The notes below the pieces were generated by a model, which was not told the origin of the DNA, searched no databases, and worked only from the letters and a program-made list of their open reading frames with translations. The position numbers were made by a program, and so were the translations under genes. A DNA stretch of 64,000 nt from a bacterium (GTDB lineage Bacteria; Patescibacteriota; Microgenomatia; JAMCZE01), in assembly GCA_021836035.1 (NCBI GenBank), contig JAKBJL010000002.1, forward strand, positions 151,282-215,281, written 5' to 3'. Positions 1 to 57,747 of the stretch are shown one piece after another. The stretch's first letter is position 1. Every line of letters begins with the position of its first letter.

Positions 1-2006
1 GTCGGGTCTCCCGGGGGGTAGGTATTTTTTTGCACTACCAGATGGCCGTTCTGCAAAGAGTTGGTAAAGGTGCAAACTACCGCGTCACCGCTTCCTATTT
101 CGACAGCGTTTAATAAGCCCGGAGAATAAATATTACCGTTTTTAGTACAGTCCAGGGCAGAATTGTAACCCGTTAATCCACCCGTCTCGGAAACATAATA
201 GGTACCCGTATTTACCTTCTTAGCATCGGTCGTTAAAGGATTTCCGCCGCCGGAACCGGTCTGTTGGCTAAAAACTTCACTTCCTCCCGCGGTGGTCCCG
301 ATATTTAAAGTTGTCTGGCTGCCGGTTCCTACCCAAACCTTTTTCAATTCGATAGTTCCCGACTGGCGGGTATTAGTATAATAACAATCGACAATTCCCC
401 CGCCACCTCCGCCGATTGTGATCGTGGCGGTCCGGGAATTTAAATCGGTCAGGGCTTCAGTATCATTACCCGAAACATTGCAAGTTAAACCAGTCAAAGA
501 ATATGTTACTGGGCTATTCTCCGTAACGGTATATACTCCGGGAGAAACAGACAGAAAAGTTCGTGTCCCGCTGTCATCGAGATTAAATCCCGTCGGGGTC
601 AAACCGTTTGTGGTAAATCCGAATCCGCTTCCGCCGGCCGGATCTGTTGTTTTATGAATAGTAATTGTACTTGGGGGAATTATGGCGCTAGCAGCTAGTT
701 GTAAATCTTGGCTGCCGACATTTTTATCAACGCCATTTACCGTCAGAGAAACCTGATGGATATGATATGGAGAACCATCGATATTAATAGCGGAATTACC
801 TATTTGCCAATCACTCTGCGAAGCTATATGACCACCAAAAGCTATAACAACATTGCTGGTGCCGGAGGTATGCGAAGTAGCATCCCAATCAACACGTACT
901 GTAGTCGTGCAATCGGAACTGCCGACATTTTGACTTTCGTAAGTAAAGTGGGTCAGATTTAAACCCCAGGCTTTTATCGAACCCGCTATCTGGCTATCGA
1001 TAAAGGTATTTGATCCGCAGGCAACAGGAAACGAAGTTAAAGTATCATCGTTGGTTACGGAAACCTGGCTAGTCGGTGTAGAAGGAGTACAGGCAACACT
1101 CATGCCGCTAACATCTCCGCAGGGATTGTTTTCATTAGCATGAAGGCTGTTCGGCGAACCTGTTGTTTCCGTGTAATCATAATTTCCCAGATAATCTATA
1201 GCGTGTTTACCGCCTTTGGTTACATCATAGGAAAAAGTATATGAGCCGCTCCCCGATTCCACATTGTTAATAACTACCCTGTAGGAGAGAAAGTCGGCCT
1301 CATTCCAATGAGCTTTTTGTTTGTTTACATCGCCCTTTACCCAGTTACCACCGGAACAACTCTCGGGAGCATTTCCGATACCCCCGTTAGCACATTGGAG
1401 GGGATCAACGCTTAAAGGGCCCCCGCCACCACCCGGACCCCCTCCGAGAAGAATCGTAAAATTATTGTTACCTCCGGAATTTTTATTGCTTTTACCGCGG
1501 AGGACTCCGCTCGTACCCAAAACATCTCCCAAGGTCGCCCCCCCGGTAGAAACCGGGGCTTGCCCCAAACCTTCTTGCTTCGGGGTTGGTTCAGGCGAAA
1601 GAGTTGGCGTAGGTTCTGGCGAAATTGACGGTCCCGGCGTCGGGGTGGGCGTCAGATTTTCCGTCGGCAAGGGCGTTAACGAGGGATCCGGGGAAGGCGT
1701 ATATATAATAGTATCCGTAGGGGTCGGTGTCAGTGATAATTGTGGAGCGGGAGTGAGTTCGGGGGCGGGAGTCGTTTCCGGGGGAGTTACTTCCGGTGTC
1801 GGGCTTATCTTCGCTGTATCGCCGGGGCTTGGGTTTGTACTTGGACTTGGACTAGCACTTATGCTCCCGGTGGGCGTACCTGTCGGCGCATCTTCCGCGT
1901 AAATAATCCTGTTAAAACCGCTGAAAAGGACGGGAGAAAGCAATTGGAATACCAGGAGAAAAATATTGACCGCTGATAAAATCCGGTAAAAGTTTTTCCC
2001 GCGCAC
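1..2006 (-). CDS. Large secreted surface protein, N-terminal ~668 aa only (3' end beyond window start). Signal peptide, Pro/Thr-rich linker, Gly-rich segment, then repeated ~110-aa prealbumin-fold (Cna-B/SdrD-B-like) modules
   Basis: Minus-strand frame stays open from a GTG at 2004-2006 to position 1. It is absent from the ORF track because there is no in-window stop. N-terminus MRGKNFYRILSAVNIFLLVFQLLSPVLFSGFNRIIYA-EDAP looks like a signal peptide. It is followed by a PT-rich stretch, a GGGPGGGGGP run, and repeated units ending ...VxCxYTN / VCTFTN. The plus-strand ORFs 418-1976 are its antisense shadows. Confidence 0.6.
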   Translation of the reverse strand, partial: MRGKNFYRILSAVNIFLLVFQLLSPVLFSGFNRIIYAEDAPTGTPTGSISASPSPSTNPSPGDTAKISPTPEVTPPETTPAPELTPAPQLSLTPTPTDTIIYTPSPDPSLTPLPTENLTPTPTPGPSISPEPTPTLSPEPTPKQEGLGQAPVSTGGATLGDVLGTSGVLRGKSNKNSGGNNNFTILLGGGPGGGGGPLSVDPLQCANGGIGNAPESCSGGNWVKGDVNKQKAHWNEADFLSYRVVINNVESGSGSYTFSYDVTKGGKHAIDYLGNYDYTETTGSPNSLHANENNPCGDVSGMSVACTPSTPTSQVSVTNDDTLTSFPVACGSNTFIDSQIAGSIKAWGLNLTHFTYESQNVGSSDCTTTVRVDWDATSHTSGTSNVVIAFGGHIASQSDWQIGNSAINIDGSPYHIHQVSLTVNGVDKNVGSQDLQLAASAIIPPSTITIHKTTDPAGGSGFGFTTNGLTPTGFNLDDSGTRTFLSVSPGVYTVTENSPVTYSLTGLTCNVSGNDTEALTDLNSRTATITIGGGGGGIVDCYYTNTRQSGTIELKKVWVGTGSQTTLNIGTTAGGSEVFSQQTGSGGGNPLTTDAKKVNTGTYYVSETGGLTGYNSALDCTKNGNIYSPGLLNAVEIGSGDAVVCTFTNSLQNGHLVVQKNTYPPGDP

Positions 2007-3913: not shown

Positions 3914-4696
3914 ATGCTTAAGAAGCTTTTGTGGTTATCCTTAATTCTTATTCTCCTATCGAGTTTCCGACTCTCTCCTGTTGCCGCTAAAAATAACGAG
4001 GGGGAAGACAATACCCCGGAAGTTGACGGTATTTATAATGTTCCCGGCCGCCCGGACCTTAAATTACGCGTATTTGTCCACCGCGGCCGCCCGGATAACG
4101 GGAGTAACAGCTCCTTAACCTGCGGCCTTGCCGATCCCGATTCATCATCCGCCGTCCCCGGCGCGGGCTGGCACCTTCCCGACGGTACTTGGACTTACCA
4201 TCTTAATCTGGCTAAAACTCCCGCTTCTGTCGGAGGAACCAATTTCGTTAATTTAACCGCTGCCGCCTTTAATACCTGGGACGCAACTAAAGTCGGGCAA
4301 CATGTAACTTCTTTTACGCGGGGCAGCGATACTACCCTGACCCGGAAAGCTCTTGACGGCCAAAATATTATTTCCTGGAGCAAACTCGGCGGCGGAACTT
4401 TGGCCGTAACCTATACCTGGTATTACACGGCAAACCAGCAGGTCGCCGAGACCGACACTCTTTTTAATACCCGCTATCCCTGGAGCTGGTCCGGAAACGC
4501 GACCTGCGCCGACCCCAACTCTTACGACGCGCAGAATATTTTAACCCACGAGCTGGGTCATACCATGGGGCTTAATGATGTTTATAGCAAAGAATTTGTC
4601 AACAATACCATGTACGGCTACGGAGCAAAAGGGGAAGCGAAAAAGGATACTCTTACTACGGGAGACATTAACGGAGTAAACACCCTCTATTATTAG
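3914..4696 (+). CDS. Secreted zinc metalloprotease, metzincin of snapalysin (M7)-like type
   Basis: Signal peptide MLKKLLWLSLILILLSSFRLSPVAA. Zinc motif HELGHTMGLND (HExxHxxGxxD, third ligand Asp as in snapalysin) followed by a Met-turn NTMYGY. Confidence 0.75.
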   Translation: MLKKLLWLSLILILLSSFRLSPVAAKNNEGEDNTPEVDGIYNVPGRPDLKLRVFVHRGRPDNGSNSSLTCGLADPDSSSAVPGAGWHLPDGTWTYHLNLAKTPASVGGTNFVNLTAAAFNTWDATKVGQHVTSFTRGSDTTLTRKALDGQNIISWSKLGGGTLAVTYTWYYTANQQVAETDTLFNTRYPWSWSGNATCADPNSYDAQNILTHELGHTMGLNDVYSKEFVNNTMYGYGAKGEAKKDTLTTGDINGVNTLYY

Positions 4697-5132: not shown

Positions 5133-7358
5133 CTAGAACCGAGGGGCAAGAACGCGGTGACGGATGCGGCGGACAATAAGCAAAGCTGCGAAAAGGGGCA
5201 GAAGTAAAAGCAGCCAGGCCAGATTAATTTTTAAGATCTTCTTACCGCCTAAATTAACCGTCGCGGCTAAAGATTTAGCGCTATTGTCAACCCTTGTTCC
5301 CGCGATAAGACTAACAACGCCGTGATATGCCGGAGCGTAACCGGAATTACCCAGTACCTGCCCGGCTGTCGTCGTTACCGGATCGCTTCCGTTACTACCC
5401 GCGCTATTACTTGTATTATTAATACTGGTACTTGAACTGTTACTTGTACCGTTATCACTACTGTTTCCCACACTTATATTATTGCTTGTACTTGTATTTG
5501 AACTATTACTGTTGTTTGCCGGCTTACTTGCTCCCGGCGTTAGAAAATCTCCTACCCAACTGCCGAAAACGTTAACCACCGTGACAAATAATTTCCCGCT
5601 GCCGACAATATTGTTGTCCACAAAATTAACGATATTGGCAATAATTTTTGCGTCACCGGTATGAATGATATTATTCCCGCCCGTGTTTTGGCTGGTATTG
5701 TTGCCGCCGGTATTAGCGGAAAGCGAAAGGTTATTGACAATACTTGCGGAATTGGACTGGACCGTCGTTGTATTGCTGTTTTGGGAAGCACCGGCCGTAT
5801 TGCTCGAGCCGCCGCCGTTGCCTCCGTTAGTAACGCTGATTTGGCCGCCGGGATCCGAGGAAATTTCCATCCCCGGGCTGGCGGCGACATTGCCGTTTTG
5901 ATTTCCCCCGATCAATTGACCGATCCATTGCCCGGCTTTATTAATAATCACCAGAAACCAATTGCCGCCGCTGAGATTATTATTGGCAACATTTACCACA
6001 CCAGCGGATACTTGGGTATTCCCGGTAACGATATCCGTCGCTCCGTTGGTATTCAGGCTCCCAAGGTTATCGCCGGTGTTGGCTGCTAAATTTAAATTAT
6101 TGGTAATCGTCCCGTTATTATTTTGCACCGTGGTATTCGTTGCCGAAGCACTGGCGGTCGCGATATTAGCCGAACCGCTGCCGTTGCCGGAATTATTGGC
6201 CAGAATAGCGCTGGCGGTGGCGTTAGTTGCTCCGCAACAACTGCTCAGCGCCGATTCCGGAAAAATAATATCCCCGACTAAATTTCCGTAAATATTAACA
6301 ACGCCGTAAACTATATTGCCGGAAATATTATTGTTGGCAAAGGTTAAAACGTTGCCGTTGACATTGGCGTTACCGGTAGCAATGGTATTATCCCCGCCCG
6401 TATTTTTACTTGCGGTATTCGAGCCGGAATTAGCCGCTAACACCAGGGTGCTGCCGACATTAGCGTCATTATTTTGAAAACTATTTTGGGTATCCGCCCG
6501 CGCGGTTGTTGCCGCGTTAGTACTGCCAGCCCCGTTATTGGTATTTCCGGCGCTCAAACTGGTACTACCGCAATTTAGGACGCAGTGGGCCGCAAAATTT
6601 AAAACGATATCCCCGGTATGGTTGTCGTTAACATTAAATTCCGCAACGGCAATCCCGTCCACGTTGGTATTGACCGCCGTAATGGCCGTACCCGAGACAT
6701 TAGCGTCACCGGAAGTAATCGTTGAGTTACCGACGTTGCCGGAAGCGGTATTAGCTCCCGTGACCGTTTGCTGGGATAAATTATTATTGATCGTCGCACT
6801 GTTATTTTGCGTACCGGAAATCGTCGCTGAACTGCTGGCTGTCGCCATATTCGTCGAGCCGCTGCCGTTACCGGAATTCGTCGCGCTGGGATCGCTCCCG
6901 GTGTGACCGCCGCCGGTAGTGCTGTTATTGTTCCCTGTGGTTATCGCGGTGACATTATTAGTAGCGCTTCCGGTAGTAATTTGGGCAGCCCCGGTAACTC
7001 CGTTTTGACTCTGGCCGCCGGTTTGGTTTCCGTTTGCGGGCATCGGAGTGGGAGTTGGAGTCGGAGCTTGCCCCGAAGCGCCCTGGTTTGGGGTCGGGGT
7101 GGGCGTAGGACTAACCGTGCCGCCTGCGGCTACGGGTGTAGGGGTTGGGGTAGGAGTAGGGCTGGGCGACAGAGTGAGTGCTTGCGGCGGGGTGGGAGCG
7201 GGAGAGGGAGAAGGGGCAGGACTGGGTGCTGTAGGCGCTGTCGGAGCAACCGGCGGGGTCGGGGTAGGCGTCGTATCGGCCAGAACCGCGCCTAACCCGC
7301 TTTGAACGAAAATCATTGCCGCTAAAGCGATGCTGATAATTAAATTTTTATTTTTCAT
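5133..7358 (-). CDS. Secreted Asn/Gly/Thr/Ser-rich tandem-repeat surface protein (741 aa). N-terminal signal peptide and PT-rich linker, C-terminal hydrophobic anchor with a basic tail
   Basis: MKNKNLIISIALAAMIFVQSGLGAVLA signal. Linker TPTPTPPVAPTAPTAPSPAPSPSPAPTPP. Repeated units with SGNGSGS.N...ASGN.G...TG.AN motifs and paired Cys (HCVLNCG, SSCCGAT). C-terminal KINLAWLLLLLPLFAALLIVRRIRHR. Paralogous to 7488-8723. Confidence 0.8.
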   Translation of the reverse strand: MKNKNLIISIALAAMIFVQSGLGAVLADTTPTPTPPVAPTAPTAPSPAPSPSPAPTPPQALTLSPSPTPTPTPTPVAAGGTVSPTPTPTPNQGASGQAPTPTPTPMPANGNQTGGQSQNGVTGAAQITTGSATNNVTAITTGNNNSTTGGGHTGSDPSATNSGNGSGSTNMATASSSATISGTQNNSATINNNLSQQTVTGANTASGNVGNSTITSGDANVSGTAITAVNTNVDGIAVAEFNVNDNHTGDIVLNFAAHCVLNCGSTSLSAGNTNNGAGSTNAATTARADTQNSFQNNDANVGSTLVLAANSGSNTASKNTGGDNTIATGNANVNGNVLTFANNNISGNIVYGVVNIYGNLVGDIIFPESALSSCCGATNATASAILANNSGNGSGSANIATASASATNTTVQNNNGTITNNLNLAANTGDNLGSLNTNGATDIVTGNTQVSAGVVNVANNNLSGGNWFLVIINKAGQWIGQLIGGNQNGNVAASPGMEISSDPGGQISVTNGGNGGGSSNTAGASQNSNTTTVQSNSASIVNNLSLSANTGGNNTSQNTGGNNIIHTGDAKIIANIVNFVDNNIVGSGKLFVTVVNVFGSWVGDFLTPGASKPANNSNSSNTSTSNNISVGNSSDNGTSNSSSTSINNTSNSAGSNGSDPVTTTAGQVLGNSGYAPAYHGVVSLIAGTRVDNSAKSLAATVNLGGKKILKINLAWLLLLLPLFAALLIVRRIRHRVLAPRF
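5440..7000 (-). repeat. Intragenic tandem coding repeats (~90-aa units) of the 741-aa surface protein; limits approximate
   Basis: The SGNG.GS / NTGG / TGNAN / VNN motifs recur periodically in the translation. The many antisense ORFs across this span are low-complexity artefacts of the same repeats. Confidence 0.5.
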
Positions 7359-7438
7359 TTTAATAAATTATCTAATAAAAATTTTTCCGGACCCCTTCAG
7401 TGATAATTCAGTCTTTAGGCTTATGCTCTTGGCGTAAG

Positions 7439-7468
7439 GTGCTTATCGGAAGTGCACGATAAGCACCC
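7439..7468. other. Perfect 11-bp inverted repeat ggtgcttatcg-N8-cgataagcacc
   Basis: Read directly. It lies about 20 nt past the stop of the 7488-8723 gene on the minus strand and about 85 nt upstream of the 5133-7358 start. No U-tract follows. Confidence 0.5.
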
Positions 7469-7487
7469 TACTAACCAAAAAAGATGC

Positions 7488-8723
7488 TTAACCAAAATGG
7501 AACAGCGTCATCAGATCTTGGAGATCGAAGCTCACGCTCACCCCCCCTAAATCTGCTAAACGACCGAAAACATTTTGATTACCGGTACTGGATACGCTGG
7601 CCGTAGAATTGGAATCGCCGGTCAAAACCATCACCGGATCAAACATGACCGGTCCGGTGTTAGCCGACGCGGCATTGTCTCCGGTTTGGACATCGGTCCC
7701 CAGAGAGTTTAAAAGATCGGCATAATTGCCTCCTTTTTCTCCACTCCCCTGAAAGACCTCGGCGCTGTTGCCCAGATTGACACTGGCAGAGTTAGCCGAG
7801 CCATCTCCGTTACCGGAAGTCTTCGCGGAAACATCCGCCAGACAACCGCAATCTATTTCGGCGACATTGAAATTTACCCTATTGTCAACCGAAGCAGCGG
7901 AATTAGCGTTTCCGGTCAAAACCAGAACGCTGCCCCCGGTATTACCGCCGGTGTTATTGTCTCCGGACTTGGCATAGGAGCTGACCCGATTAGATACCGC
8001 CGCCATGTTATCCTGAGTGATCAGGTTATCATGAGACAAAATGGTATCAATCGAATTTGTGCTCCCGGAGCCGTTTCCGCTTTCCGTAATATCGACTGAA
8101 CCCGTACTCCCGCCATTATTTCCGCCGATTAAAGCGGCATTGGCGTTAGCATTGGTCGAGACGGTGGACTGGATGTTGGCATCGCCGGTTAATATCCGGG
8201 TGGTCCCGCCGGTATTGTTGCCGGCCGTATTTTCTCCGGTTACCGACCGGGAAGTGACACTGTTTTCCACTTCCGCACGGTTAGTCTGGAACAATTGGTT
8301 TGTATTAGCCTGTTCCAAGCTGGCGCTGTTGGCGCTTCCGGCACCGTTGCCGGAGATAGTGGTACTGCTCGTCCCGTTAGTGCAACAACCAACCGCCGCC
8401 CGATTACCGTTTAAGGTATTGGTTACGGTCGTGTCGATATTAGCATTTCCGGTACTCACCGTTACCTCTCCGCCGGTATTCCCCGAGGCCGTGTTATGCC
8501 CGGTTTGCGCACTATTATCAATAGTATTGGTAACAGTGGCCGAGTTATTCTGTACCGCGGTCGTTGTATTGCTATTCGTCAACGAAGTCGTAGAAGTACT
8601 GCCGGCGCCGTTGCCGGAGATAGTGACACTGGTATCAGCTAAAGCCGCAGCGGGAAGCAGGGTATTAGCTACCAGTAGCCCGGTAGCAAAAACACCCGTT
8701 AATTGCTTTTTCAAAGAAATCAT
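7488..8723 (-). CDS. Secreted Asn/Gly/Thr/Ser-rich tandem-repeat surface protein (411 aa), four ~90-aa repeats; paralogue of 5133-7358
   Basis: Signal peptide MISLKKQLTGVFATGLLVANTLLPAAALA and a strong RBS GGAGAGGGGGTG 8 nt upstream. The four repeats begin ISGNGAGS(T/A)NS, ITESGNGSGSTNS, TSGNGDGSANSA... and each carries NTGG..V.V.TG.AN and a Cys pair (GCC, CGC). Confidence 0.8.
   Translation of the reverse strand: MISLKKQLTGVFATGLLVANTLLPAAALADTSVTISGNGAGSTSTTSLTNSNTTTAVQNNSATVTNTIDNSAQTGHNTASGNTGGEVTVSTGNANIDTTVTNTLNGNRAAVGCCTNGTSSTTISGNGAGSANSASLEQANTNQLFQTNRAEVENSVTSRSVTGENTAGNNTGGTTRILTGDANIQSTVSTNANANAALIGGNNGGSTGSVDITESGNGSGSTNSIDTILSHDNLITQDNMAAVSNRVSSYAKSGDNNTGGNTGGSVLVLTGNANSAASVDNRVNFNVAEIDCGCLADVSAKTSGNGDGSANSASVNLGNSAEVFQGSGEKGGNYADLLNSLGTDVQTGDNAASANTGPVMFDPVMVLTGDSNSTASVSSTGNQNVFGRLADLGGVSVSFDLQDLMTLFHFG
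7491..8636 (-). repeat. Four intragenic tandem coding repeats (~270 nt each); limits approximate
   Basis: Periodicity seen in the translation; the plus-strand ORFs 7768-7977 and 8041-8763 are antisense artefacts. Confidence 0.5.
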
Positions 8724-8788
8724 ATTCTTTCACCCCCTCTCCTCTTTAGGCAAACCCCGATAGCGATCGGGGGCACCTCTTTTTTAAA

Positions 8789-8846
8789 CAAAAAAAACGG
8801 AGGCCACAGTATCAAGGAGATTATCCTCGAACTGTTAGCCTCCGTT
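8789..8846 (-). terminator. Intrinsic terminator-like structure inside the presumed 5' leader of the 7488-8723 gene. Long imperfect hairpin (aacggaggc...gcctccgtt, inner acagt/actgt) followed by U8
   Basis: Minus-strand reading: aacggaggcTAacagtTCGAGGATAATCTCCTTGATactgtGgcctccgtt then tttttttt. It sits about 65 nt upstream of the RBS and ATG at 8723. The AT-rich promoter-like region lies further upstream at 8850-9060. Confidence 0.55.
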
Positions 8847-8945
8847 TGCGGTCAGCCTAAAGTTTTATTAAATTGTAAATATGTACTTATACATATCTTA
8901 TAAATATTTTTATAAAATATGTATGTCCATTTTTTACATCATTAT

Positions 8946-8959
8946 CTGTCAATTGTCAA
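8946..8959 (-). promoter_or_regulatory. Tandem TTGACA-TTGACA (attgacaattgaca) within a very AT-rich ~200-bp region. Candidate -35 elements or operator for the 7488-8723 transcript
   Basis: Direct repeat TGTCAAT-TGTCAAT on the plus strand reads TTGACAATTGACA on the minus strand. No clean consensus -10 at 17 bp. Confidence 0.3.
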
Positions 8960-9067
8960 TACCCCAATAGCACTTTTATATAGATGATCATATATATATT
9001 ATGATAGAATTAATAATTATTTTGATACCCTATAGACTAGTAAATTCTTACCGTCTTCTTACTTCAG

Positions 9068-9289
9068 TTATATTGGTGATTCCGTTAAGATCTTCTTGAA
9101 ACTGCCGTTTATTTCCAGGTTGGTTTTTTTAATATGGCGGATGGTAATTTGGGTTATTACTCCGTCCTGAACATAAATTTCCACACTCCCGAAAGATACT
9201 GTCTCCAAAGCTTTGCGTAATTCCTCCAGGGATTCCCCGGTATGCCGGGCCGGGGTTTTTTTAAACTTGCTGCTTAAGGCAGTACTCAT
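9068..9289 (-). CDS. DUF2292 (YezD-like) small protein (73 aa)
   Basis: ...SFGSVEIYVQDGVITQITIRHIKKTNLE resembles the YezD/DUF2292 core (FGSV.I.V.DGKVVQI...K) as I recall it. Confidence 0.4.
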   Translation of the reverse strand: MSTALSSKFKKTPARHTGESLEELRKALETVSFGSVEIYVQDGVITQITIRHIKKTNLEINGSFKKILTESPI

Positions 9290-9290
9290 A

Positions 9291-9911
9291 TTAAAAATTC
9301 AGGGGAATACGCTGCTTTTCCCCGTCTATTTCGCCGATCTGCAAGATAAAATTTTTATCGGTAGTATTTACCGGGAAACCGATCCGGGTATCTTTTGTCG
9401 AGATCGGCTGGATAGTAATGGGATCGTTATGAATATCCGCCGCGTACCATTGGCTTTCGTCACCGTTTACCGCTAAGCGGACATAATCCCGGGTATTCAT
9501 GGTTATCTCCTTGCTTGTATTGTTCACGACATGCAACGAGAGGATAAGAAAAGTCCGGCCCTGAATCGCGGTAGCTTTTTGGCCTTTAACGATAATCTGG
9601 TCGCGCAATTCCGCCGTATCTAAAACATAGCTAACCGTTGCCGCAACGTTTCCTTTGCTGTCCCGGATAGGGAAATCAAAAGAACGGTTAATCTTGGTGG
9701 TAGCTTGGGCTGCAGCAAGATTTACCTGGTCATTTGCGGGCTTTTTGGCGGAGGCGCTTTGAACAATATTCCTGGCCCAAATACCGGCCCCGGCGACAAT
9801 CAAAACCAGGAGAGCAATCGGCAGCGCTTTCCTTAATATCCGGCGTCCGCCGGTTCTGAACCGGACAGTTGCTTTTCCCCCCAGAGGATAATTGCCATTA
9901 TCGGGATTCAT
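9291..9911 (-). CDS. Membrane-anchored extracytoplasmic protein with DUF4352-like beta-sandwich domain (206 aa)
   Basis: N-terminal TM ALPIALLVLIVAGAGIW. C-terminal region ...KGQKATAIQGRTFLILSLHVVNNTSKEITMNTRDYVRLAVNGDESQWYA... fits the DUF4352 pattern. 4-nt overlap with the upstream gene. Confidence 0.45.
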   Translation of the reverse strand: MNPDNGNYPLGGKATVRFRTGGRRILRKALPIALLVLIVAGAGIWARNIVQSASAKKPANDQVNLAAAQATTKINRSFDFPIRDSKGNVAATVSYVLDTAELRDQIIVKGQKATAIQGRTFLILSLHVVNNTSKEITMNTRDYVRLAVNGDESQWYAADIHNDPITIQPISTKDTRIGFPVNTTDKNFILQIGEIDGEKQRIPLNF

Positions 9912-10502: not shown

Positions 10503-10805
10503 TCAGTAAGTAGGAAGAACCACTTGTTTTCCGGAGATTAGTTTCCCGTTAACCGGAATTTGCAGAGCAAAACCTAAGGCGTTGGCGATCGCTACCCCTA
10601 CCCGCAAACCGGTAAAAGAACCCGGGCCAGTAGCTACCTCGATTTCCGTAATATCCTGCAGGGTAAGATCCTGCATATCCAGTAGCTCTTTAATCATCGG
10701 CAAGACTACCTGCGAGCGCCAAACGGAAGAGTCTTTGACCGTTTCTTTTTCCCCAAGCCATATAATAGTTTTTTGGTTGGAAGAAGTGTCAATAAACAGT
10801 TGCAT
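10503..10805 (-). CDS. tsaB: Mini-TsaB-like protein (N-terminal domain of the tRNA t6A biosynthesis protein TsaB/YeaZ, 100 aa)
   Basis: MQLFIDTSSNQKTIIWLGEK...EIEVATGPGSFTGLRVGVAIANALGFAL carries the TsaB/Kae1-family GPGSFTGLRVG motif. Only ~100 aa against ~230 aa for canonical TsaB. Confidence 0.6.
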   Translation of the reverse strand: MQLFIDTSSNQKTIIWLGEKETVKDSSVWRSQVVLPMIKELLDMQDLTLQDITEIEVATGPGSFTGLRVGVAIANALGFALQIPVNGKLISGKQVVLPTY

Positions 10806-10810
10806 GCTTT

Positions 10811-12808
10811 TTACTTCCCAAAATTGGCAATAACCTGGGACAAATCGAAGATAGAATAATTACTTCCAAAATAATTTAAAACGATTCTTAGGTCATTAAT
10901 GTCTACCTTGCCGTCACCATTAAAATCGCCGCCTAGGGGAGACGGAGACGGCGAGCCCGGATTGGCCACTAAGCTATATAAAGCCGCGACTTCAGCAGGA
11001 TTTAGCGCACGATTATAGATTCTAACTTCATCGACAAAACCATTGTAATGTCGATTATAAGCAAGGTAGGGATGGGTACCGATTTTAAACTGCGCCCCAA
11101 GCGTTTGACTAGGAAGGCCAACCGCCGTCCCGGTTTTTGCTAAGGCGCCGTTAATATATAAGTTATAAATATTATTGGTATAATCATTAACTACTACCAG
11201 ATGCGTCCAGTTCTTCAAATCGTAAGAATAAGAATTAACCCGGCTACCATCACCACCTGATAAACTGATTTCATATCCGTTAGAAGTTGGATCATATATA
11301 AGTTCGTATGAAGCGTTATTATTTGTGCCTCCCCGTGCTTGAGCCAAGATATCCTGCCAGTTACCACCGGTGTCATCTGCTTTAACCCACAAAGAATAAG
11401 AAAAGGTGGGATTAGTAGCGTTAATCATCTGAACGGGTATATTAATATTTTGTCCTGTTCCGTTAAAATAGCCACTATTACCGGAGACACCGACCACTCC
11501 TCCGACAGGGCCGGTACCAGCCGGGCAAGACATACCGTTGTATCCGTTGTTTGAAAAATCTATTACAGTAGGGGTCTGGCAATCATTTATCCACGAACTT
11601 TCATCCATCTTCCAATAACCCGCTAATCCCCGATTAAGATCAACCTGAGCCGGGGTTGGTATAGGCGTAGGACTGGGGTGAATATCATTCGTCCAGGCAT
11701 TTTGAACATTTTTAATAACATTAAAGTTACCTTCAATCGTCGGATCATCATGAATTTGTTGTAATGTCTTACCGAGAAATGAGGTCTCTAAATTAGAAAC
11801 AGCGCTATCTATTTGCGAAGAGCTTGTGCCGATATTATTTTTAAAATCATTAAGGGTCCACGTGCTAAAATTTGTACCGAAAACCGGGTTAACTCCGCCG
11901 ACAAAGACATTGCCGCTAGCCGAAACTCCGGGGAGAGAAGGCAAAGTACTGTTAAGAAAATTTACCGGACCGACCAGGTTGTTGTTGAAAATATAGGAAG
12001 AGGTATAAGGAGGACAATCCGTACCCGTAGAAAAATTGAGAGTTCCCGAATGGTTAGAAATATTCGTACTCCAAAAGATATTTTTGTATGCTTGATGGTT
12101 AAGACCATTCAAGACCAAACTCGCCCAGGAATCAGCGATAAAATTATTACGGATAGTAGTATAGTTTGGCCCATGCCAAAGATGGATACTATATCCTGAA
12201 TTATCAACAAAAATATTCCCATCTATTAAAGTCCCATCAGTTGCCTGCGAAACGGCACAATTATTAATATAAATGGGGTGGTAATATGGAGCACTGCCAT
12301 CAAAAATAAAGCGGTTGTTAATATATTTATTTCTCATATGTGTTCCTTCATTTACCCCACCAAAATAATTAAATAAGGTTAAACCGACTAGCTCCACATC
12401 ATTACCGTGTTGAAAAACATGGTCATATGTGTCTTTTACGGGCGAGCCGAACCAAAGACCCGCTACATGGACAAAACCTCCCACCAGGACATTCGGCGGA
12501 TGCCCTGCTACATCGGTAATAATCGGCCTGGCTCCTGTATCAGCATAAACATACGATCTTGTTGTTGTGCTGGATGGACCAAGGTTTAACCAACCGTTAT
12601 TCACGGTATCAATGGAATAAATTCCGTCTTTCAAAATCAGGGTATCTCCAGGAACCATTTTGGAATTGCCGGTACCAAGATCGTAGGGGTTGTTGCTAGA
12701 GCCATCCCCCGAAGAAGATCCGCTTGGCGAGACAAAATATGTGGCCGCCAATGTCGGTTTAGTTGCCCAAAAAAACAGGCAGATAATAATTAATATAATT
12801 CTTTTCAT
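10811..12808 (-). CDS. Secreted right-handed beta-helix (DUF1565/pectin-lyase-fold) protein with LamG/ConA-like domain and C-terminal dockerin-like module (665 aa)
   Basis: Signal peptide MKRIILIIICLFFWATKPTLAA. DUF1565-like start TYFVSPSGSSSGDGSSNNPYDL...PGDTLILKDGIY. PbH1-like NN.F / NIFVDN repeats. Laminin_G_3-like segment ...WTHLVVVNDYTNNIYNLYINGAL...NGFVDEVRIYNRALNPAEV. C-terminal GDFNGDGKVDINDLRIVLNYFGSNYSIFDLSQVIANFGK. Confidence 0.7.
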   Translation of the reverse strand: MKRIILIIICLFFWATKPTLAATYFVSPSGSSSGDGSSNNPYDLGTGNSKMVPGDTLILKDGIYSIDTVNNGWLNLGPSSTTTRSYVYADTGARPIITDVAGHPPNVLVGGFVHVAGLWFGSPVKDTYDHVFQHGNDVELVGLTLFNYFGGVNEGTHMRNKYINNRFIFDGSAPYYHPIYINNCAVSQATDGTLIDGNIFVDNSGYSIHLWHGPNYTTIRNNFIADSWASLVLNGLNHQAYKNIFWSTNISNHSGTLNFSTGTDCPPYTSSYIFNNNLVGPVNFLNSTLPSLPGVSASGNVFVGGVNPVFGTNFSTWTLNDFKNNIGTSSSQIDSAVSNLETSFLGKTLQQIHDDPTIEGNFNVIKNVQNAWTNDIHPSPTPIPTPAQVDLNRGLAGYWKMDESSWINDCQTPTVIDFSNNGYNGMSCPAGTGPVGGVVGVSGNSGYFNGTGQNINIPVQMINATNPTFSYSLWVKADDTGGNWQDILAQARGGTNNNASYELIYDPTSNGYEISLSGGDGSRVNSYSYDLKNWTHLVVVNDYTNNIYNLYINGALAKTGTAVGLPSQTLGAQFKIGTHPYLAYNRHYNGFVDEVRIYNRALNPAEVAALYSLVANPGSPSPSPLGGDFNGDGKVDINDLRIVLNYFGSNYSIFDLSQVIANFGK

Positions 12809-14100
12809 TTCCCAAAATTAGTAATCACTTTGGATAAATCAAAAATTGTATATGGGGTATCAAAACCTATAAGAGCAATTTTCATATCGTTTATATCTAC
12901 ATAACCGTCTCGATTAAGGTCTCCAGGAATTAAGCCTGCTCCTGCCCAGGCGTCCTGAACAGCTGAAATAATTTTGAAGTTGCTTTCAATCGCTTGGTCG
13001 TCATGGATTTGTTGGAGGGTTTTGCCGGTAAAGGAGTTTTCAATATTGGCAATGACCGTATCCAACTCCGGACCGGAAACTCCTAGTCGGGCGGGAACAT
13101 CGTTTAGGGTTAAAGTCTTTTGATTGTTGCCAAAACCTGGAATATTAACAAAATAATTGTCATCAATAATTACCTGAGGATCATAACTCGTCATCGGAGA
13201 AACCAATCGATTGGCATTGTTTGGGCCTAAAAAATTATGGCGGAAAGTAAAAACATTTTTGCCGTTGTTGGCATCCTGTGGCGGCGGCCAATATTCATTA
13301 TCTGTCGGTAACCAGAGGGCTACATTTTGCCAGCCGCCCGAGCTCCATAAGATATCATCTTGGACACTATTACCTTTGCCCTGAACAACAATACCATAGC
13401 AGACATCACCATAGAAATTATTATGGACGGTGACATAACCAGGATTGTGCCAAAGGTGGGTAGCATAGCCCCCTTCAAAACTCAGAGGCTTTCCGATGTG
13501 GATATTTTTCTCGATTAAAGCACCTTCCCCGGGTTTGGCCATCATATTATTAATATAGATTGAATGGCCCCGGTTATCATGGCCTGAGCGGATAAAACGG
13601 TTGCCGATATATTTGTTTCTCGTACTGCCTCCTTCATTAAGACCGCCAAAATAATTAAAATAGGTATTATTGACTAGCTCAACGTCATTACCGTTTTGGA
13701 TCACGTATTCTGCCGTATCCTTACTAGGCGTCCCGAACCACAAACTTTCCACCCTGGTGAAAGAATTGGTGAAAACATTCGGAGTATGGACGGCAATATC
13801 AGTAATAATTGGTCTCGCATTGATGTCAGCCTTGACAATTGATCTCACTGTGGAACCTGATGGTCCCAAAAACAGCCAACCGCGGTTGACCGTATCTACA
13901 GCGTAGATGCCGTCTTTAAGAATTAAGGTATCCCCCGGTCGCATCCGGGAATTACCGGTCAGTAAATCCCAAGGATTGGACATAGAACCATCGCCCGTTG
14001 AAGAACCGGAAGGAGAAACATAATAGTCAGCGGCAAAGGTTGGGGAAGCAAAGATGCCAAAAACAAAAATAATAGCTAAAAGGAAAAGTATTTTTTTCAT
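12805..14100 (-). CDS. Secreted right-handed beta-helix (DUF1565-like) protein with C-terminal dockerin-like module (431 aa); paralogue of 10811-12808
   Basis: MKKILFLLAIIFVFGIFASPTFAADYYVSPSGSSTGDGSMSNPWDL...PGDTLILKDGIY. C-terminal GDLNRDGYVDINDMKIALIGFDTPYTIFDLSKVITNFGK. ATGA overlap with neighbours. Confidence 0.7.
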   Translation of the reverse strand: MKKILFLLAIIFVFGIFASPTFAADYYVSPSGSSTGDGSMSNPWDLLTGNSRMRPGDTLILKDGIYAVDTVNRGWLFLGPSGSTVRSIVKADINARPIITDIAVHTPNVFTNSFTRVESLWFGTPSKDTAEYVIQNGNDVELVNNTYFNYFGGLNEGGSTRNKYIGNRFIRSGHDNRGHSIYINNMMAKPGEGALIEKNIHIGKPLSFEGGYATHLWHNPGYVTVHNNFYGDVCYGIVVQGKGNSVQDDILWSSGGWQNVALWLPTDNEYWPPPQDANNGKNVFTFRHNFLGPNNANRLVSPMTSYDPQVIIDDNYFVNIPGFGNNQKTLTLNDVPARLGVSGPELDTVIANIENSFTGKTLQQIHDDQAIESNFKIISAVQDAWAGAGLIPGDLNRDGYVDINDMKIALIGFDTPYTIFDLSKVITNFGK

Positions 14101-15494
14101 TTCCCAAAATTAGTAATCACTTTGGATAAATCAAAAATAGAATAGGGATTATTAAAATCGATTAGAACTTTTCTGATATCCATGATATCCACTTTACCGT
14201 CCTGATTCAAATCCCCGGCTAAATTAACAGTTTGAGATATAAAAGCGCCTAAATTCTTACCATCACTGCCAGCATTACTTGCCAAACTACCAGGTAATAA
14301 ACGGAAATCTCCGGCAGCGGCGTTAACAAACAGGGGATCAAAATGCATGGTATGTACCCCCAAAGTATTATTATGCTGGACAAAGTAAGGAGAAATCCCG
14401 TAATTATCAGCCGAAGTAAAATAATCGTCATAGTCGTCGGTATTATACTGAGGATAAGAGTTCATCGAACCGCCAGAATCATAGTCAAGATTATTGCTGC
14501 CATTAAAGACAAACAAATTATTTTTAACGTTATTATAGGCGGCGCCCTCACGAAAATAAAATATTCCCCGGGCGTTGCTGACCGAGGTGTTGTTGAAAAC
14601 CTGGTTGTGGTCGCCGGCGATAATAATTCCACCGGCCCCGTTGCCAAAAGTAATATTTCGTGATAATACCTGCCCGGTGGGATTGCTGTAGGAATGAATG
14701 CCGTAACCGGCATTGTTAAAAATTATATTCCCGTCCACGGTAAAATAACTGGCCGGAACGTAAATCCCGTGGTCGGTGCCCTGGGTTCCGTTTTCAAAAA
14801 CGATATTGCCCTGAATTAGGGCATTTGTTCCACCATGTCCTTCCTCCTTAATCCCACAATGGAGATGATTATAAACGACATTATTAGAAATACGATCTCC
14901 TTGGCCGGCACCATTGAAAAAGATAATACCGACATCACTGTAAGTCTCCTGTGCTGGAGCTCCGGGATATCCCCGATAACCTTCAACAACAAAACCATTG
15001 AACCATACATAGTAAGCGCTGTTCCCCTGGAGGGTAACAATCGGGCCGGCAAGGTAATTATCGGGTGGAAGTATTTTTACTTTTCCTAAGTCACCCGGTG
15101 CGGAACTGATTACCAGAGGATTACTATCACTGGTCCCACCCTTCTGGATTAAGACAGTTTGTTTATAAATTCCGGCAGTGACATAAATAATATCTCCGGC
15201 AGAAGCAACAGCAATTCCTTTATTAATAGTCGCAAAAGGTGATGTTTGAGTTCCAGAGTAATTATCGTTGCCTTTGGCTGATACCCAATAAACTTTTCCC
15301 GCTGTAGGGAAATTTAACTCCGGAACTACCGGGCGGACCAAATTCCAGGTACCACGATCATAAGAAACGGTAATTGTTCTTTGATCAGGAGAGAAGTAAA
15401 TATCAGGGGTCGAATAAGCTTCAGCTATGGGTGTTTTAATTAAAGATAGAAAGGCTGCAAGCAGGAAAACGCCATATTTTAAAATTTGTTTCAC
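14097..15494 (-). CDS. Secreted right-handed beta-helix (DUF1565-like) protein with C-terminal dockerin-like module (~465 aa from GTG start)
   Basis: PbH1-like repeats (GNIVFENG, GNIIFNNAGYGIH, NITFGNGAGG). C-terminal GDLNQDGKVDIMDIRKVLIDFNNPYSIFDLSKVITNFGK. Start placed at GTG 15492-15494 (MKQILKYGVFLLAAFLSLIKTPIAEA signal peptide, matching the paralogues). An ATG at 15545 is the alternative. The ORF-track start at 15683 would overlap tsaE by 70 nt. Confidence 0.65.
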   Translation of the reverse strand: MKQILKYGVFLLAAFLSLIKTPIAEAYSTPDIYFSPDQRTITVSYDRGTWNLVRPVVPELNFPTAGKVYWVSAKGNDNYSGTQTSPFATINKGIAVASAGDIIYVTAGIYKQTVLIQKGGTSDSNPLVISSAPGDLGKVKILPPDNYLAGPIVTLQGNSAYYVWFNGFVVEGYRGYPGAPAQETYSDVGIIFFNGAGQGDRISNNVVYNHLHCGIKEEGHGGTNALIQGNIVFENGTQGTDHGIYVPASYFTVDGNIIFNNAGYGIHSYSNPTGQVLSRNITFGNGAGGIIIAGDHNQVFNNTSVSNARGIFYFREGAAYNNVKNNLFVFNGSNNLDYDSGGSMNSYPQYNTDDYDDYFTSADNYGISPYFVQHNNTLGVHTMHFDPLFVNAAAGDFRLLPGSLASNAGSDGKNLGAFISQTVNLAGDLNQDGKVDIMDIRKVLIDFNNPYSIFDLSKVITNFGK

Positions 15495-15613
15495 GCTCAA
15501 AAATACCCGCAAAATGGCAGGTAAATACCAGCTTAAGATTAACATAAATTTGGTAAATCTAGAATGAGGGGCCCGCTTTTTTGCTTTACGAAACTGGAGA
15601 TACTGCCTGCCGA

Positions 15614-16051
15614 TTATTTCCCGATTCTGGTAATTAATATTTCTCTGGTATTTTCTCCTTCGGTTGTTATTCCAATTTCCCATCTTTTTTCGGGCAAAAA
15701 ACCCTCAATTTTTTCCGGCCACTCAATCAGGACAATATTTTTCGGATCCTGCCAAAGTTCCTCAATACCAACGGCTTTAATATCGTCGACGGAAGTCAAG
15801 CGATATAAATCCACATGCCATAAATAAGCCAATTTAACACAGCGGATAACGGATAGCAGGTAGCGTCTGGTGATAACGAATGTTGGGCTGACAAGCCGGG
15901 ATTTAATTCCTAAACCTTCCGCAACCCCCTGAACAAAAGTAGTTTTACCGACGCCCAGATCACCGTAAAGAGCCACTACTCCTCCGCTTTTAATCTTTCT
16001 GGCAAATTCACTCCCCAATTTCCGGGTTTCCCTGGCCGAGCTGGTTACCAT
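15614..16051 (-). CDS. tsaE: tRNA threonylcarbamoyladenosine biosynthesis ATPase TsaE (YjeE)
   Basis: P-loop GDLGVGKTTFVQG, then SPTF and HVDLYRL motifs typical of TsaE. Confidence 0.8.
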   Translation of the reverse strand: MVTSSARETRKLGSEFARKIKSGGVVALYGDLGVGKTTFVQGVAEGLGIKSRLVSPTFVITRRYLLSVIRCVKLAYLWHVDLYRLTSVDDIKAVGIEELWQDPKNIVLIEWPEKIEGFLPEKRWEIGITTEGENTREILITRIGK

Positions 16052-56970: not shown

Positions 56971-57747
56971 TTAATTATTTTGGGCAATCCGCGCCCGGAC
57001 AATTAATCTTTTCCAATAAGTCCCAGGCGGTACGCAGGTAACCAGGGCAATATAAGAGTCATCAAAACGCTGTTCTAAAATAGAATAATCATCGGGGTCA
57101 ACCGTCTGCATGTCAAAAACCAGGTATTTGTAAGCGACGCGGTCAGCAAAAATATAAATACTATCACCTTTGTCCAAAGTCGGTAACAGGGAAAATATCG
57201 TCGTATAATTTTTAGGATTATAAAACTGCGGCAGAGCGCTATGGCCAAAAATAATATTGGTACCGGGTATCCCCGGCAGACTGCTGGTTCCCCACCCGAT
57301 CAGGCTCTTTTTTAAATCTTCCCCGCCGAAAGTTACTTCCGCATTCTCAATACGCAATTTCGGAATCGAAAGATTATATGTTATTCCGGCCGACGTAGTA
57401 CTGTTTTGGGAAACCCCGGGATACCAATTACTGGCCCGCAAAAGGTTGTCGCTACTACCCTCCTGTACATTCATCGGCAAACCATTTTCTTCCGCGATCG
57501 CCGGTGAAGCAAAACGCGGTATGGGACTGGCAAAGCGGCTCTGGGGTTGTTTCGGGAGGTATATTATCTGCCATTCAATTAGGGGCCAAATCACATTGCC
57601 TAAAAGCAACACTCCCGCGGAAAACATAATCAGCGAAGCGCTAACCAATAGTGATCGGGGAATTTTCGGCAGAGCCGGAAAACTGACGGTAACAGCGGGA
57701 GCAGTTACCGGCCGACGTTTTAAATAAATGTAGACAAAACTGCCCAT
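56971..57747 (-). CDS. Sortase-family transpeptidase, membrane-anchored
   Basis: N-terminal TM LLVSASLIMFSAGVLLLGNVIW, catalytic His region NIIFGHSA, TLxTC-like motif IALVTCVP, conserved Arg LIVRAR. Confidence 0.7.
   Translation of the reverse strand: MGSFVYIYLKRRPVTAPAVTVSFPALPKIPRSLLVSASLIMFSAGVLLLGNVIWPLIEWQIIYLPKQPQSRFASPIPRFASPAIAEENGLPMNVQEGSSDNLLRASNWYPGVSQNSTTSAGITYNLSIPKLRIENAEVTFGGEDLKKSLIGWGTSSLPGIPGTNIIFGHSALPQFYNPKNYTTIFSLLPTLDKGDSIYIFADRVAYKYLVFDMQTVDPDDYSILEQRFDDSYIALVTCVPPGTYWKRLIVRARIAQNN

Follow-up and report, generated by a model that had tools for sequence, protein, structure and literature searches.

What do two neighbouring genes for secreted, internally repetitive proteins build on the surface of a Patescibacterium? 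The question is raised by a pair of minus-strand genes, here called A and B, in a 64,000-nucleotide stretch of bacterial DNA (the window), which a sequence-only reading had taken to encode paralogous surface proteins of 741 and 411 aa. The ends of both open reading frames match exactly (5133-7358 and 7488-8723), and the two proteins are indeed paralogous (BLASTP E = 3e-53). Sec-type signal peptides ending in AxA (AALA↓DT in B and AVLA↓DT in A), a composition rich in N, T, G, S and A, with Asn at 13-15%, and a C-terminal hydrophobic anchor with a basic tail in A (TM helix at aa 713-737) were likewise found. The PT-rich stalk ascribed to A was misplaced, as the PT-rich region is N-terminal, at the opposite end of the protein from the anchor; the wall-spanning spacer would therefore be the S/N-rich segment. 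The proteins had also been described as made almost entirely of repeats; four tandem units are present in each, but the repeats of A span only ~aa 114-610.

The proposed repeat consensus agrees with that of the family (ISGNGAxSxN..VxQxNxAxVxNxVxAxAxTGxNxAxxNTGGxVxVxTGxAxxxVxVxNxxNxN). A unit HMM matched the units of B at E = 1e-17 to 5e-25 and those of A at 7e-8 to 5e-13, and the pairwise identity between units is 28-45%. A unit length of ~90 aa is correct for B (~88-91 aa) but not for A (~112-122 aa), where each unit is extended by an extra, nearly invariant hydrophobic hairpin. In the unit alignment, variable outward-facing positions alternate with conserved ones. Cysteine pairs had been placed once in every unit and occur instead once per two units, at C113/114 and C292/294 in B and after units 1 and 2 in A; among 130 B homologues, two cysteines were present at the junction of units 1 and 2 in 107, at the 3/4 junction in two and at the 2/3 junction in none. 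No DNA-level tandem repeat was found in either gene. The long antisense open reading frames, previously read as a sign of periodic DNA, reflect codon composition, as codon-shuffled genes give equally long ones (observed 229 against a shuffled mean of 157, sd 46, for B; 165 against 180, sd 52, for A).

Table 1. Features of the A/B locus, in nucleotide positions of the window and residues of the encoded proteins.
Feature	Nucleotides	Strand	Residues	Description
up	9291..9911	(-)		206 aa; single-pass membrane protein with extracytoplasmic β domain; first cluster gene
DUF2292	9068..9289	(-)		73 aa; small protein, Pfam PF10055, E = 3e-10; second cluster gene
B promoter and leader region	8724..9067	(-)		long, AT-rich
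TTGACA boxes of B promoter region	8954-8959 and 8947-8952	(-)
B leader element	8790-8856	(-)		GCUGACCGCAAAC and terminator-like stem GGAGGC...GCCUCC with U8 run
B leader heptamer	8773-8779	(-)		GAGGUGC
Gene B	7488..8723	(-)		411 aa; secreted, no anchor
B signal peptide			1-29
B repeat units	7554-8633		31-390	four units, ~88-91 aa each
B C-terminal tail			~395-411	conserved, FxLxxLLxxLG-like
RNA hairpin directly after B stop	7418..7482	(-)		stem ~7434-7470; loop GCACUUC 7449-7455
Gene A	5133..7358	(-)		741 aa; membrane-tethered paralogue of B
A signal peptide			1-27
A PT-rich region	7029-7277		28-110	disordered
A N-terminal half unit	6903-7019		114-152
A repeat units	5529-6890		157-610	four units, ~112-122 aa, hydrophobic hairpin closing each
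A spacer	5238-5528		611-707	disordered, S/N/T-rich
A TM helix and basic tail	5136-5222		713-741

The earlier statement that the repeat cannot be assigned to a named domain held in Pfam, NCBIfam, PDB sequences and Foldseek PDB/BFVD. A Pfam scan of A and B at E <= 1 returned 0 families, detecting neither the Curlin repeat (PF07012) nor the chaplin domain (PF03777/DUF320), and NCBIfam gave no match; SLH, CWB2 and other known S-layer anchoring modules were absent from both searches, and pilin, Cna-B and SpaA domains from Pfam and Foldseek. Profile searches against PDB sequences, CsgA included, and a search of phage genomes for the repeat produced no match. Foldseek comparison of both models with PDB and BFVD gave no significant match; the best, non-significant ones were CsgA (8c50, E = 3e-3) and FapC (9u4u, 9nqd), with TM-scores of 0.05-0.1 (8c50: 0.05) and no structural superposition. 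A right-handed parallel β-helix of the pectate-lyase type was rejected, as it had no Pfam match and Foldseek listed β-helix entries only at E > 0.03, with a TM-score of ~0.05 and an rmsd of ~40 Å. On these comparisons the long-β-hairpin repeat is previously unnamed, and no solved structure could be recognized as related. Its own family is large and, as far as seen, confined to Patescibacteria: more than 200 B homologues have 400-430 aa, the family forms 3374 clusters (50% identity) in a 1.8-billion-protein library, and A has 421 homologues at E <= 1e-20, with orthologues of 700-800 aa directly after B in 82 loci.

AlphaFold2 modelled B as an all-β protein (pLDDT 75.7, pTM 0.69), and A and B alike are all-β by AlphaFold2/DSSP, with strands of 31-33 residues. 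Covariation among 1335 unit sequences (Meff ~1240) revealed an antiparallel ladder (i+j ~111) that joins positions 26-51 to 59-85. Model and residue covariation thus agree in predicting a long antiparallel hairpin for every unit, from which it follows that the four units of B would form an eight-stranded β-meander. In full-length B, where Meff is small (277) and same-position couplings between units dominate, neighbouring units are also joined, through arm 2 of unit n and arm 1 of unit n+1: ladder scores were 0.41-0.60 within units and 0.43-0.52 between n and n+1, compared with 0.22-0.29 for non-neighbouring units and 0.07-0.26 for shifted-register controls. The long modelled strands and antiparallel ladders are those of a β-meander of long hairpins and not of the β-solenoid, in its usual parallel sense, that had been suggested from composition. 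The score between arm 1 of unit 1 and arm 2 of unit 4 was 0.37, only slightly above echo level, and hints at closure or head-to-tail edge pairing; intramolecular closure would fit equally.

The order up-DUF2292-B-A-C-sortase-D recurs in ~80 species-level Patescibacteria genomes, where up is a membrane protein, C an LPXTG-bearing paralogue and D a two-unit paralogue; judged by this gene order, A and B form the centre of a cluster of seven genes, a sortase gene among them in most relatives. The sequence-only reading had noticed neither this cluster nor the conserved RNA elements on either side of B. An up orthologue (41-46% identity) lies directly upstream in nearly all related loci, and the DUF2292 gene sits between up and B in almost all. 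DUF4352 was matched in 10 of 23 up members (best E = 3.8e-5), while the window's own up protein shows a weak likeness under the Pfam cut-off. Unit number is fixed for each class, at four in B and in A, three or one in C and two in D. C proteins of other genomes end in LP[AVI]TG or (I/V)LGLSxTS, with a hydrophobic stretch and then a basic tail behind the motif. Relatives thus have up to four paralogue classes, of which the window carries only B and A, in the order up, DUF2292, B, A from 9911 to 5133; C, sortase and D are absent beside A, and one sortase lies 48 kb off among housekeeping genes. Approximately 10 of the 80 loci, plus the window, retain B and A without an adjacent sortase. With its order up-DUF2292-B-A, its class-specific unit number and the family unit motif (~90 aa, SGNGxxSxN...QxNxAxVxN...TGxNxAxxNTGG..TGxA...NxxNxN), the locus in the window belongs to the Patescibacteria long-hairpin repeat family newly defined here. 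Other large surface proteins, with SpaA/SdrD_B, LamG plus dockerin, and β-helix domains, are encoded nearby.

The expression signals of gene B were observed as sequence motifs. The spacer between DUF2292 and B has a median length of 281 nt and a GC content of 0.38 across 71 loci. A TTGACA-N16-18-TAnnnT promoter precedes B in 32 of 79 loci (1.4 expected); GCTGACCGC was present in 49 of the 79 and the terminator-like 3' arm in 44. The leader in the window also holds a small hairpin and a strong Shine-Dalgarno sequence (GAGGAGAGGGGGUGA); across loci, such strong sites precede B in 31-49% and D in 41-71%, compared with 1-2% for A, 4-10% for C and 6% for background genes. An Rfam search with the leader region gave no match. 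Downstream, the spacer after B has a folding dG of -37 in the window (z = -3.9) and a median z of -6.3 across 73 loci. A covariance model of the hairpin found there matched once per locus, 72 times in 1.26 Mb and always directly after B. Paired cells came to 87.9%, against 64% after shuffling, and the hairpin's covariation score of 0.70 was reached by 0 of 500 shuffles (shuffled 0.26; slid controls 0.09-0.16). The hairpin loop (GCACUUC) is complementary to the leader heptamer in 65 of 69 loci, with pair types that vary (G:C 47, G.U 8, A:U 7, A.C 2 and G.A 1; Fisher p = 2.6e-4).

Given the conserved gene cluster, a fibre or coat is the most likely role for A and B. The corresponding part of the sequence-only reading, which had offered a fibre-forming surface layer or adhesin, survives in that these are secreted or surface proteins and a fibre or coat is favoured; its solenoid component does not. 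We propose that A and B represent two classes within a family of secreted structural proteins specific to Patescibacteria, in which consecutive ~90-aa hairpins would pair side by side to give, in B, an eight-stranded β-meander with strands of ~30 residues and one conserved face of small residues (V/A/N/Q/T). B, which lacks an anchor, may be the abundant free building block; its gene has a consensus promoter of its own and a strong ribosome-binding site, and conserved structures lie on both sides of the coding sequence in the mRNA. A would be produced in smaller amounts and anchored in the membrane through its C-terminal helix, with the flexible spacer of ~100 residues carrying its repeat domain beyond the wall. 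It could then act as tether or nucleus, to which B sheets would add by edge-strand pairing, by packing of the conserved faces, or both, and the end product would be a surface fibre or sheet. In most relatives the third paralogue, C, would be fixed to peptidoglycan by the adjacent sortase, and D would be a second free subunit; as C, sortase and D are missing beside A in the window, the anchoring half of the model is carried here by A alone. The model builds on what the analysis shows of strand pairing, repeat anatomy, signals for secretion, anchoring and expression, and conservation of the cluster. It is about an even call whether a surface polymer exists with B as its plentiful free subunit and A as its tether; the abundance, co-assembly, mode of polymerization and biological role of the two proteins are the parts of this model that we infer. 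Against it stands the AlphaFold2 monomer itself, which is fairly confident (pTM 0.69) and might be complete in itself, as a closed barrel or sandwich.

The same anchor-plus-free-subunit data also fit a two-dimensional, S-layer-like lattice. In that reading the paracrystalline outer layer observed on ultra-small bacteria would consist of B together with D, A and C would attach it to membrane and wall, and the elongated β-sheets would make up a palisade, upright or flat on the wall, with no filaments. B shows three features typical of S-layer genes: its promoter is strong, its leader is long and structured, and its 3' structure is stabilizing; the cluster, moreover, is single-copy, widely conserved and set among housekeeping and envelope genes, as expected of a core envelope component. 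Neither A nor B has a known S-layer anchoring domain such as SLH or CWB2, however, and the inter-phylum identity of the family (40-50%) is high for S-layer proteins. We consider such a lattice unlikely, noting that it overlaps the tethered polymer proposed above and differs from it only in the geometry of assembly.

Proteins that do not polymerize at all are a further alternative: A-D could serve an epibiotic cell as adhesins or for contact with its host, singly or in a small complex, with B held non-covalently, for example via its conserved C-terminal tail. Adhesins of fast-evolving type would not be expected to keep unit number, length and core residues as strictly as this family does over many candidate phyla, and four paralogue classes that share one module and three attachment modes have the look of co-assembling systems; a qualitative reading of the unit alignment also finds no obvious negative design in the edge strands. 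What speaks for such proteins is the monomeric AlphaFold2 fold of B, the alternation of variable outward-facing with conserved positions, the large surface proteins encoded by neighbouring genes and the host attachment that part of the literature ascribes to Patescibacteria. On balance this appears quite improbable. A Gram-positive-type pilus, with the repeat proteins as pilins joined covalently by the cluster sortase, is largely refuted for A and B and very improbable: most related loci have a sortase gene alongside and C carries LPXTG, but B, A and D lack an LPXTG-type signal, B ends in ...FDLQDLMTLFHFG (...DLMTLFHFG), A ends in a conserved KINLAW-TM helix that no motif precedes (only KKxIKINLAW is conserved among orthologues), neither has pilin, Cna-B or SpaA domains, and the sortase-free loci keep both genes.

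The proposed tethered polymer resembles known systems in logic and not in ancestry. In the chaplins of Streptomyces, short free forms (ChpD-H) co-assemble with long, sortase-anchored forms (ChpA-C) that bear more copies of the domain (PF03777) and whose C-terminal sortase signal holds a β-rich layer to the surface, and conserved cysteine pairs are present (PMC5618241). The A/B family likewise comprises secreted paralogues with varying copies of one module and conserved cysteine pairs, with B and D free, C sortase-anchored and A membrane-anchored, although the window has only B and A. The chaplins have no sequence relationship to A or B; their domain is hydrophobic and ~40 aa long, in contrast to the ~90-aa, N/G/T-rich long hairpin predicted here, and the present family has an extra TM-anchored class in a host without aerial hyphae. 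Curli (CsgA/CsgB) and Fap share with it Asn/Gln/Gly/Ser-rich repeats, alternating conserved residues and Asn ladders, as well as a secreted major subunit with a cell-associated paralogous nucleator. The rungs of curli, however, are parallel strand-turn-strand elements of ~20 residues, whereas the hairpin strands predicted here are antiparallel and ~30 residues long, and the cluster holds a sortase and no CsgG/E/F or FapF secretion genes, in a presumably monoderm host. With Gram-positive sortase-dependent proteins and pili, the related loci have in common a sortase and an LPXTG family member with hydrophobic stretch and basic tail, but A and B lack the sorting motif and their predicted fold is unrelated to Ig-like pilins. 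For the RNA elements, the nearest parallel is the hbs mRNA of B. subtilis, in which a highly structured 5' UTR, a strong Shine-Dalgarno sequence and an interaction between 5' and 3' UTRs are reported to control ribonuclease access and mRNA stability (PMC5737220). The complementarity of the B hairpin loop to its leader heptamer, with covariation, is similar in kind; it differs in being predicted from sequence, spanning 7 nt and joining a hairpin loop to a single-stranded leader site.

We tentatively put forward the whole, with somewhat less than even confidence, as an undescribed surface polymer system, widespread in Patescibacteria, in which one hairpin-repeat block occurs as free subunits (B, D) and as membrane (A) and wall (C) tethers, and in which the mRNA of B would be a self-contained unit with 5' leader-3' loop pairing. 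Patescibacteria make up a very large share of bacterial diversity and are thought, for the most part, to live attached to other cells, yet hardly any of the proteins in their envelope layers and appendages is known. A large family in a fixed cluster with anchor, sortase and free subunits is a concrete candidate for a core surface structure, and the predicted architecture, antiparallel strands of 30 residues with small residues on one face, would be an unusual way to construct a polymer on a bacterial surface. The RNA elements flanking B are a separate case of predicted end-to-end pairing in an mRNA; if the pairing is real, natural bacterial 5'-3' mRNA pairing would gain a new example. If the polymer model is true, the family could answer the long-standing question of what the surface layer or appendages seen on ultra-small bacteria are made of.

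The two minus-strand open reading frames that the sequence-only reading had drawn were recovered at exactly the same coordinates; they encode A, the membrane-tethered paralogue, and B, the free secreted one. Both open with a Sec-type signal peptide ending in AxA, are N/T/G/S/A-rich, in keeping with the Asn/Gly/Thr-rich composition first described, and are paralogous, as proposed (BLASTP E = 3e-53). Tandem repetition also stood, with four units in each protein, but the suggested unit length of ~90 aa fits B alone. What makes the A units longer is an almost invariant hydrophobic hairpin that follows each one (GVVNIYGNLVGDIIFP, WFLVIINKAGQWIGQ or LFVTVVNVFGSWVGDF). A search with a unit HMM gave E-values of 1e-17 to 5e-25 for the units of B and 7e-8 to 5e-13 for those of A, with no match outside A and B over the 64-kb window. 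Three details of the first description had to be revised. Cysteine pairs, which had been placed in every unit, come once per two units: in 107 of 130 B homologues, the junctions 1-2, 2-3 and 3-4 carry 2, 0 and 2 cysteines. The PT-rich segment of A, taken for a stalk, is N-terminal and far from the C-terminal anchor; the anchor-adjacent spacer is an S/N-rich disordered segment. Finally, the DNA is not periodic. TRF detected no long-period array, and a DNA-level tandem repeat was rejected: recurrence, at 264-282 nt in B, is limited to short islands of motif. The antisense reading frames are explained by a codon-shuffle control, in which they are similarly long.

Positions of the features in the window (nt) and within A and B (aa)
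Feature	Position	Strand	Detail
Giant SpaA/SdrD_B protein, start	1-2006	-	>2022 aa; cut by window start
Secreted protein near the cluster	3914-4696	+	
A	5133-7358	-	741 aa
A, PT-rich segment	aa 28-110		
A, N-terminal half unit	aa 114-152		
A, units	starts near aa 162, 273, 390, 512		112-122 aa each
A, S/N-rich spacer	aa 611-707		
A, TM helix	aa 713-737		
B-A hairpin	7418-7482	-	spacer fold z = -3.9
Hairpin loop	7449-7455		GCACUUC
B	7488-8723	-	411 aa
B, units	starts aa 36, 124, 215, 303		88-91 aa each
Leader heptamer	8773-8779	-	GAGGUGC
Leader stem and U run	8790-8856	-	
TTGACA boxes	8947-8959		
DUF2292 protein	9068-9289		Pfam E = 3e-10
'up'	9291-9911		
PF00814-type protein	10503-10805	-	100 aa
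Secreted protein near the cluster	10811-12808	-	
Secreted protein near the cluster	12805-15683	-	
Sortase	56971-57747	-	258 aa
Gene upstream of sortase	57774-60032		weak Baseplate_J-like match

No named domain could be attached to the repeat, in agreement with the sequence-only reading: neither Pfam nor NCBIfam yielded a domain for A or B, the PT-rich region of A giving only low-complexity noise against TonB and GltJ, and phmmer and profile searches with A/B found no match among PDB sequences. The homologues are annotated as 'hypothetical' in their source records, and literature searches on Patescibacteria sortases, pili, LPXTG proteins and S-layers, and on DUF2292, turned up neither the family nor its gene cluster. 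A phage origin was rejected, as tblastn against 50,697 phage records returned zero matches. The family is large, with more than 200 B-like proteins, nearly all of 400-430 aa, 421 A-like proteins at E <= 1e-20, and, when 1.84 billion representatives were searched exhaustively, 3374 clusters at E <= 1e-3 (1110 at E <= 1e-30). Among the best-scoring matches, the named sources are Patescibacteria throughout; Microgenomates form the majority (Gottesman-, Levy-, Woese-, Ames-, Davies- and Chisholmbacteria) and Parcubacteria a minority. The title 'uncultured Gammaproteobacteria bacterium', borne by many GTDB representative MAGs that carry the cluster (L005, L007, L011, L012 and others, in our numbering of loci), is probably a placeholder or wrong organism name.

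AlphaFold2 modelling of B from a 60-sequence alignment gave an all-β structure (pLDDT 75.7, pTM 0.69), each unit contributing one strand of 31-33 residues and one of ~19. The model of A (pLDDT 61) contains 31-residue strands as in B, disordered PT-rich and S/N-rich regions, and the TM helix. Foldseek comparison of both models with the PDB, and of B with BFVD, found nothing at E <= 1e-3 (TM <= 0.13); the best non-significant entries were the curli subunit CsgA, FapC and assorted β-helices. The topology was tested by covariation, applying mean-field DCA to 1335 distinct units (Meff about 1240) and to full-length B (Meff 277). The units display a long antiparallel ladder (i+j ~111), in which positions 26-51 pair with 59-85, and a short one pairing positions 3-7 with 18-22; in full-length B, a ladder of unchanged register further links arm 2 of each unit n to arm 1 of unit n+1. 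Ladder scores are 0.41-0.60 within units and 0.43-0.52 between unit n and n+1, compared with 0.22-0.29 for non-adjacent units and 0.07-0.26 for shifted-register controls. The ladders within and between neighbouring units make B an eight-stranded antiparallel β-meander built from long hairpins. One face of its sheet carries conserved alternating V/Q/N/A/T residues, while the other is variable. The β-solenoid considered at first sight was not borne out in its parallel form: a parallel solenoid with ~22-residue rungs, prompted by the alternating pattern and by CsgA and FapC among the top matches, was rejected because the covariation is antiparallel. The ladder score of 0.37 for arm 1 of unit 1 against unit 4, arm 2, hints weakly at barrel closure or at intermolecular head-to-tail edge pairing.

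In the full-length DCA the prevailing couplings join equivalent positions of different units (window aa 38/127/217/305, 79/168/258/346 and others in the B family), which are stronger for units 1 with 3 and 2 with 4 than for neighbouring units. We excluded these as contacts and take them as a sign either of composition drift or of a duplicated two-unit module that evolves in concert; the module is indicated by these couplings together with the two-unit paralogue D and the single cysteine pair per two units. Tip-to-tip couplings (unit positions 10-14 with 47-55) were rejected as head-to-tail contacts, since co-variation at these positions extends over all units, which marks an echo or a composition mode.

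A survey of other Patescibacteria genomes, combining homologue look-ups with a scan of one genome per species, yielded 80 further loci in which the gene order is almost invariant. It runs from 'up', a membrane protein of ~200-270 aa with one TM segment and a domain weakly resembling DUF4352, through a DUF2292 protein of 60-80 aa, B (four units), A (four units and the TM anchor), the paralogue C (three units or one) and a sortase, to D, a secreted protein of ~200 aa on the opposite strand with two units and one cysteine pair between them. C proteins end in LP[AVI]TG or a second motif, (I/V)LGLSxTS, then a hydrophobic segment and a basic tail (for example YLRLRSGRSP), which together constitute a predicted sortase sorting signal. 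The form (I/V)LGLS(A/D/N)TS(G/S) replaces LPxTG in C of L001, L027, L029, L031, L037, L042, L061, L062, L064 and L065, and may be an alternative sortase recognition sequence. In the window, the place of C, sortase and D 3' of A is taken by a DUF3467-like gene (88 aa) and one for a secreted M10 metalloprotease, a short form found at ~10 of the 80 loci.

The sortase of the window lies 48 kb from A/B among housekeeping genes, between ruvX/yceG-like and alaS, with no repeat protein adjoining; the gene upstream of it has a weak Baseplate_J-like match. Genes for other secreted proteins are frequent near the cluster: besides the M10 (matrixin-like) metalloprotease, which has a signal peptide, they encode a LamG protein of 665 aa whose C-terminus is dockerin-like, and two β-helix proteins resembling Pel9A. 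The giant protein at the window start, with SpaA/SdrD_B (Cna-B-type) domains (compare L085:16718-21236), is a second, unrelated large surface protein near the cluster. A 100-aa protein whose match to the TsaD/TsaB fold (PF00814) is confined to the N-terminal part of that fold is kept near the cluster in distant genomes (L001:5502-5804) and may be a miniaturised TsaB-like protein.

From its sequence signals, B seems to be expressed independently and strongly. The spacer 5' of B is long (median 281 nt) and AT-rich, and contains a promoter of the form TTGACA-N16-18-TAnnnT at 32 of 79 loci, against 1.4 expected; that of the window has only the TTGACA -35 box, the canonical -10 being absent. Strong Shine-Dalgarno sequences precede B at 31-49% and D at 41-71% of loci, but A at only 1-2% and C at 4-10%; the figure for background genes is 6%. 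The B leader also has a conserved element, GCUGACCGC, 5' of the leader heptamer (see below) and downstream of the TTGACA boxes; a terminator-like stem and U run come next. This part, GCUGACCGCAAAC with the stem GGAGGC...GCCUCC and its U8 run, lies within the presumed B transcript and may serve as an attenuator or 5' stabiliser; GCTGACCGC is present at 49 of 79 loci.

Directly 3' of the B stop codon lies a long hairpin. At 73 loci the B-A spacer folds far better than its shuffles (median z = -6.3), and a covariance model found exactly one hairpin per locus in a constant position (72 matches in 1.26 Mb). Paired cells make up 87.9% of the stem versus 64% after shuffling, and its covariation score, calculated without phylogenetic correction, is 0.70 versus 0.26 for shuffled alignments (reached by 0/500) and 0.09-0.16 for slid controls. 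We rejected a generic terminator, because the hairpin is single-copy in the 64-kb window, occurs once per locus at a fixed position and lacks a U tract. Rfam has no family for this hairpin or for the B leader. The loop is nearly invariant, and its exact complement, GAAGUGC, precedes the B start codon by 40-80 nt, a conserved distance, at 65 of 69 loci; the heptamer of the window fits the loop via a G.U pair. The terminal leader-loop pair co-varies (G:C 47, G.U 8, A:U 7, A.C 2, G.A 1; Fisher p = 2.6e-4, without phylogenetic correction), and an internal A:U to G:C switch occurred in one lineage. G.U pairs outnumber the other mismatches, which speaks for pairing of RNA with RNA rather than for a repeated DNA site. 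These observations suggest that leader heptamer and 3' loop form a 5'-3' pairing in a monocistronic B mRNA.

Taken together, these results are best accounted for by a co-assembling surface polymer with a tether, formed by A, B, C and D, to which we give an even chance. Pointing to this are the single module with fixed copy numbers across paralogue classes; the three modes of attachment, namely none, a TM helix behind a flexible spacer of ~100 residues, and sortase; the confinement of high-expression signals to the unanchored classes; and a β-sheet whose free edges resemble its internal strands and which has one conserved small-residue face. That the proteins instead build an S-layer-like two-dimensional lattice is unlikely, and it would likewise be somewhat surprising if they were non-polymerising adhesins. 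A classical sortase pilus is highly improbable.

By all sequence and fold criteria tested, A and B lie outside the chaplin and curli families. The curli pair CsgA/CsgB follows a similar logic of bulk subunit and tether or nucleus. In chaplins, short free forms co-assemble with long sortase-anchored forms carrying two domain copies, and cysteine pairs are important for function (PMC5618241); the pairing of free subunits with anchored paralogues is shared with B/D and A/C. In a co-assembling polymer of this kind, B (and D) would be the bulk subunits, and A (and C) would act as tethers or nuclei.
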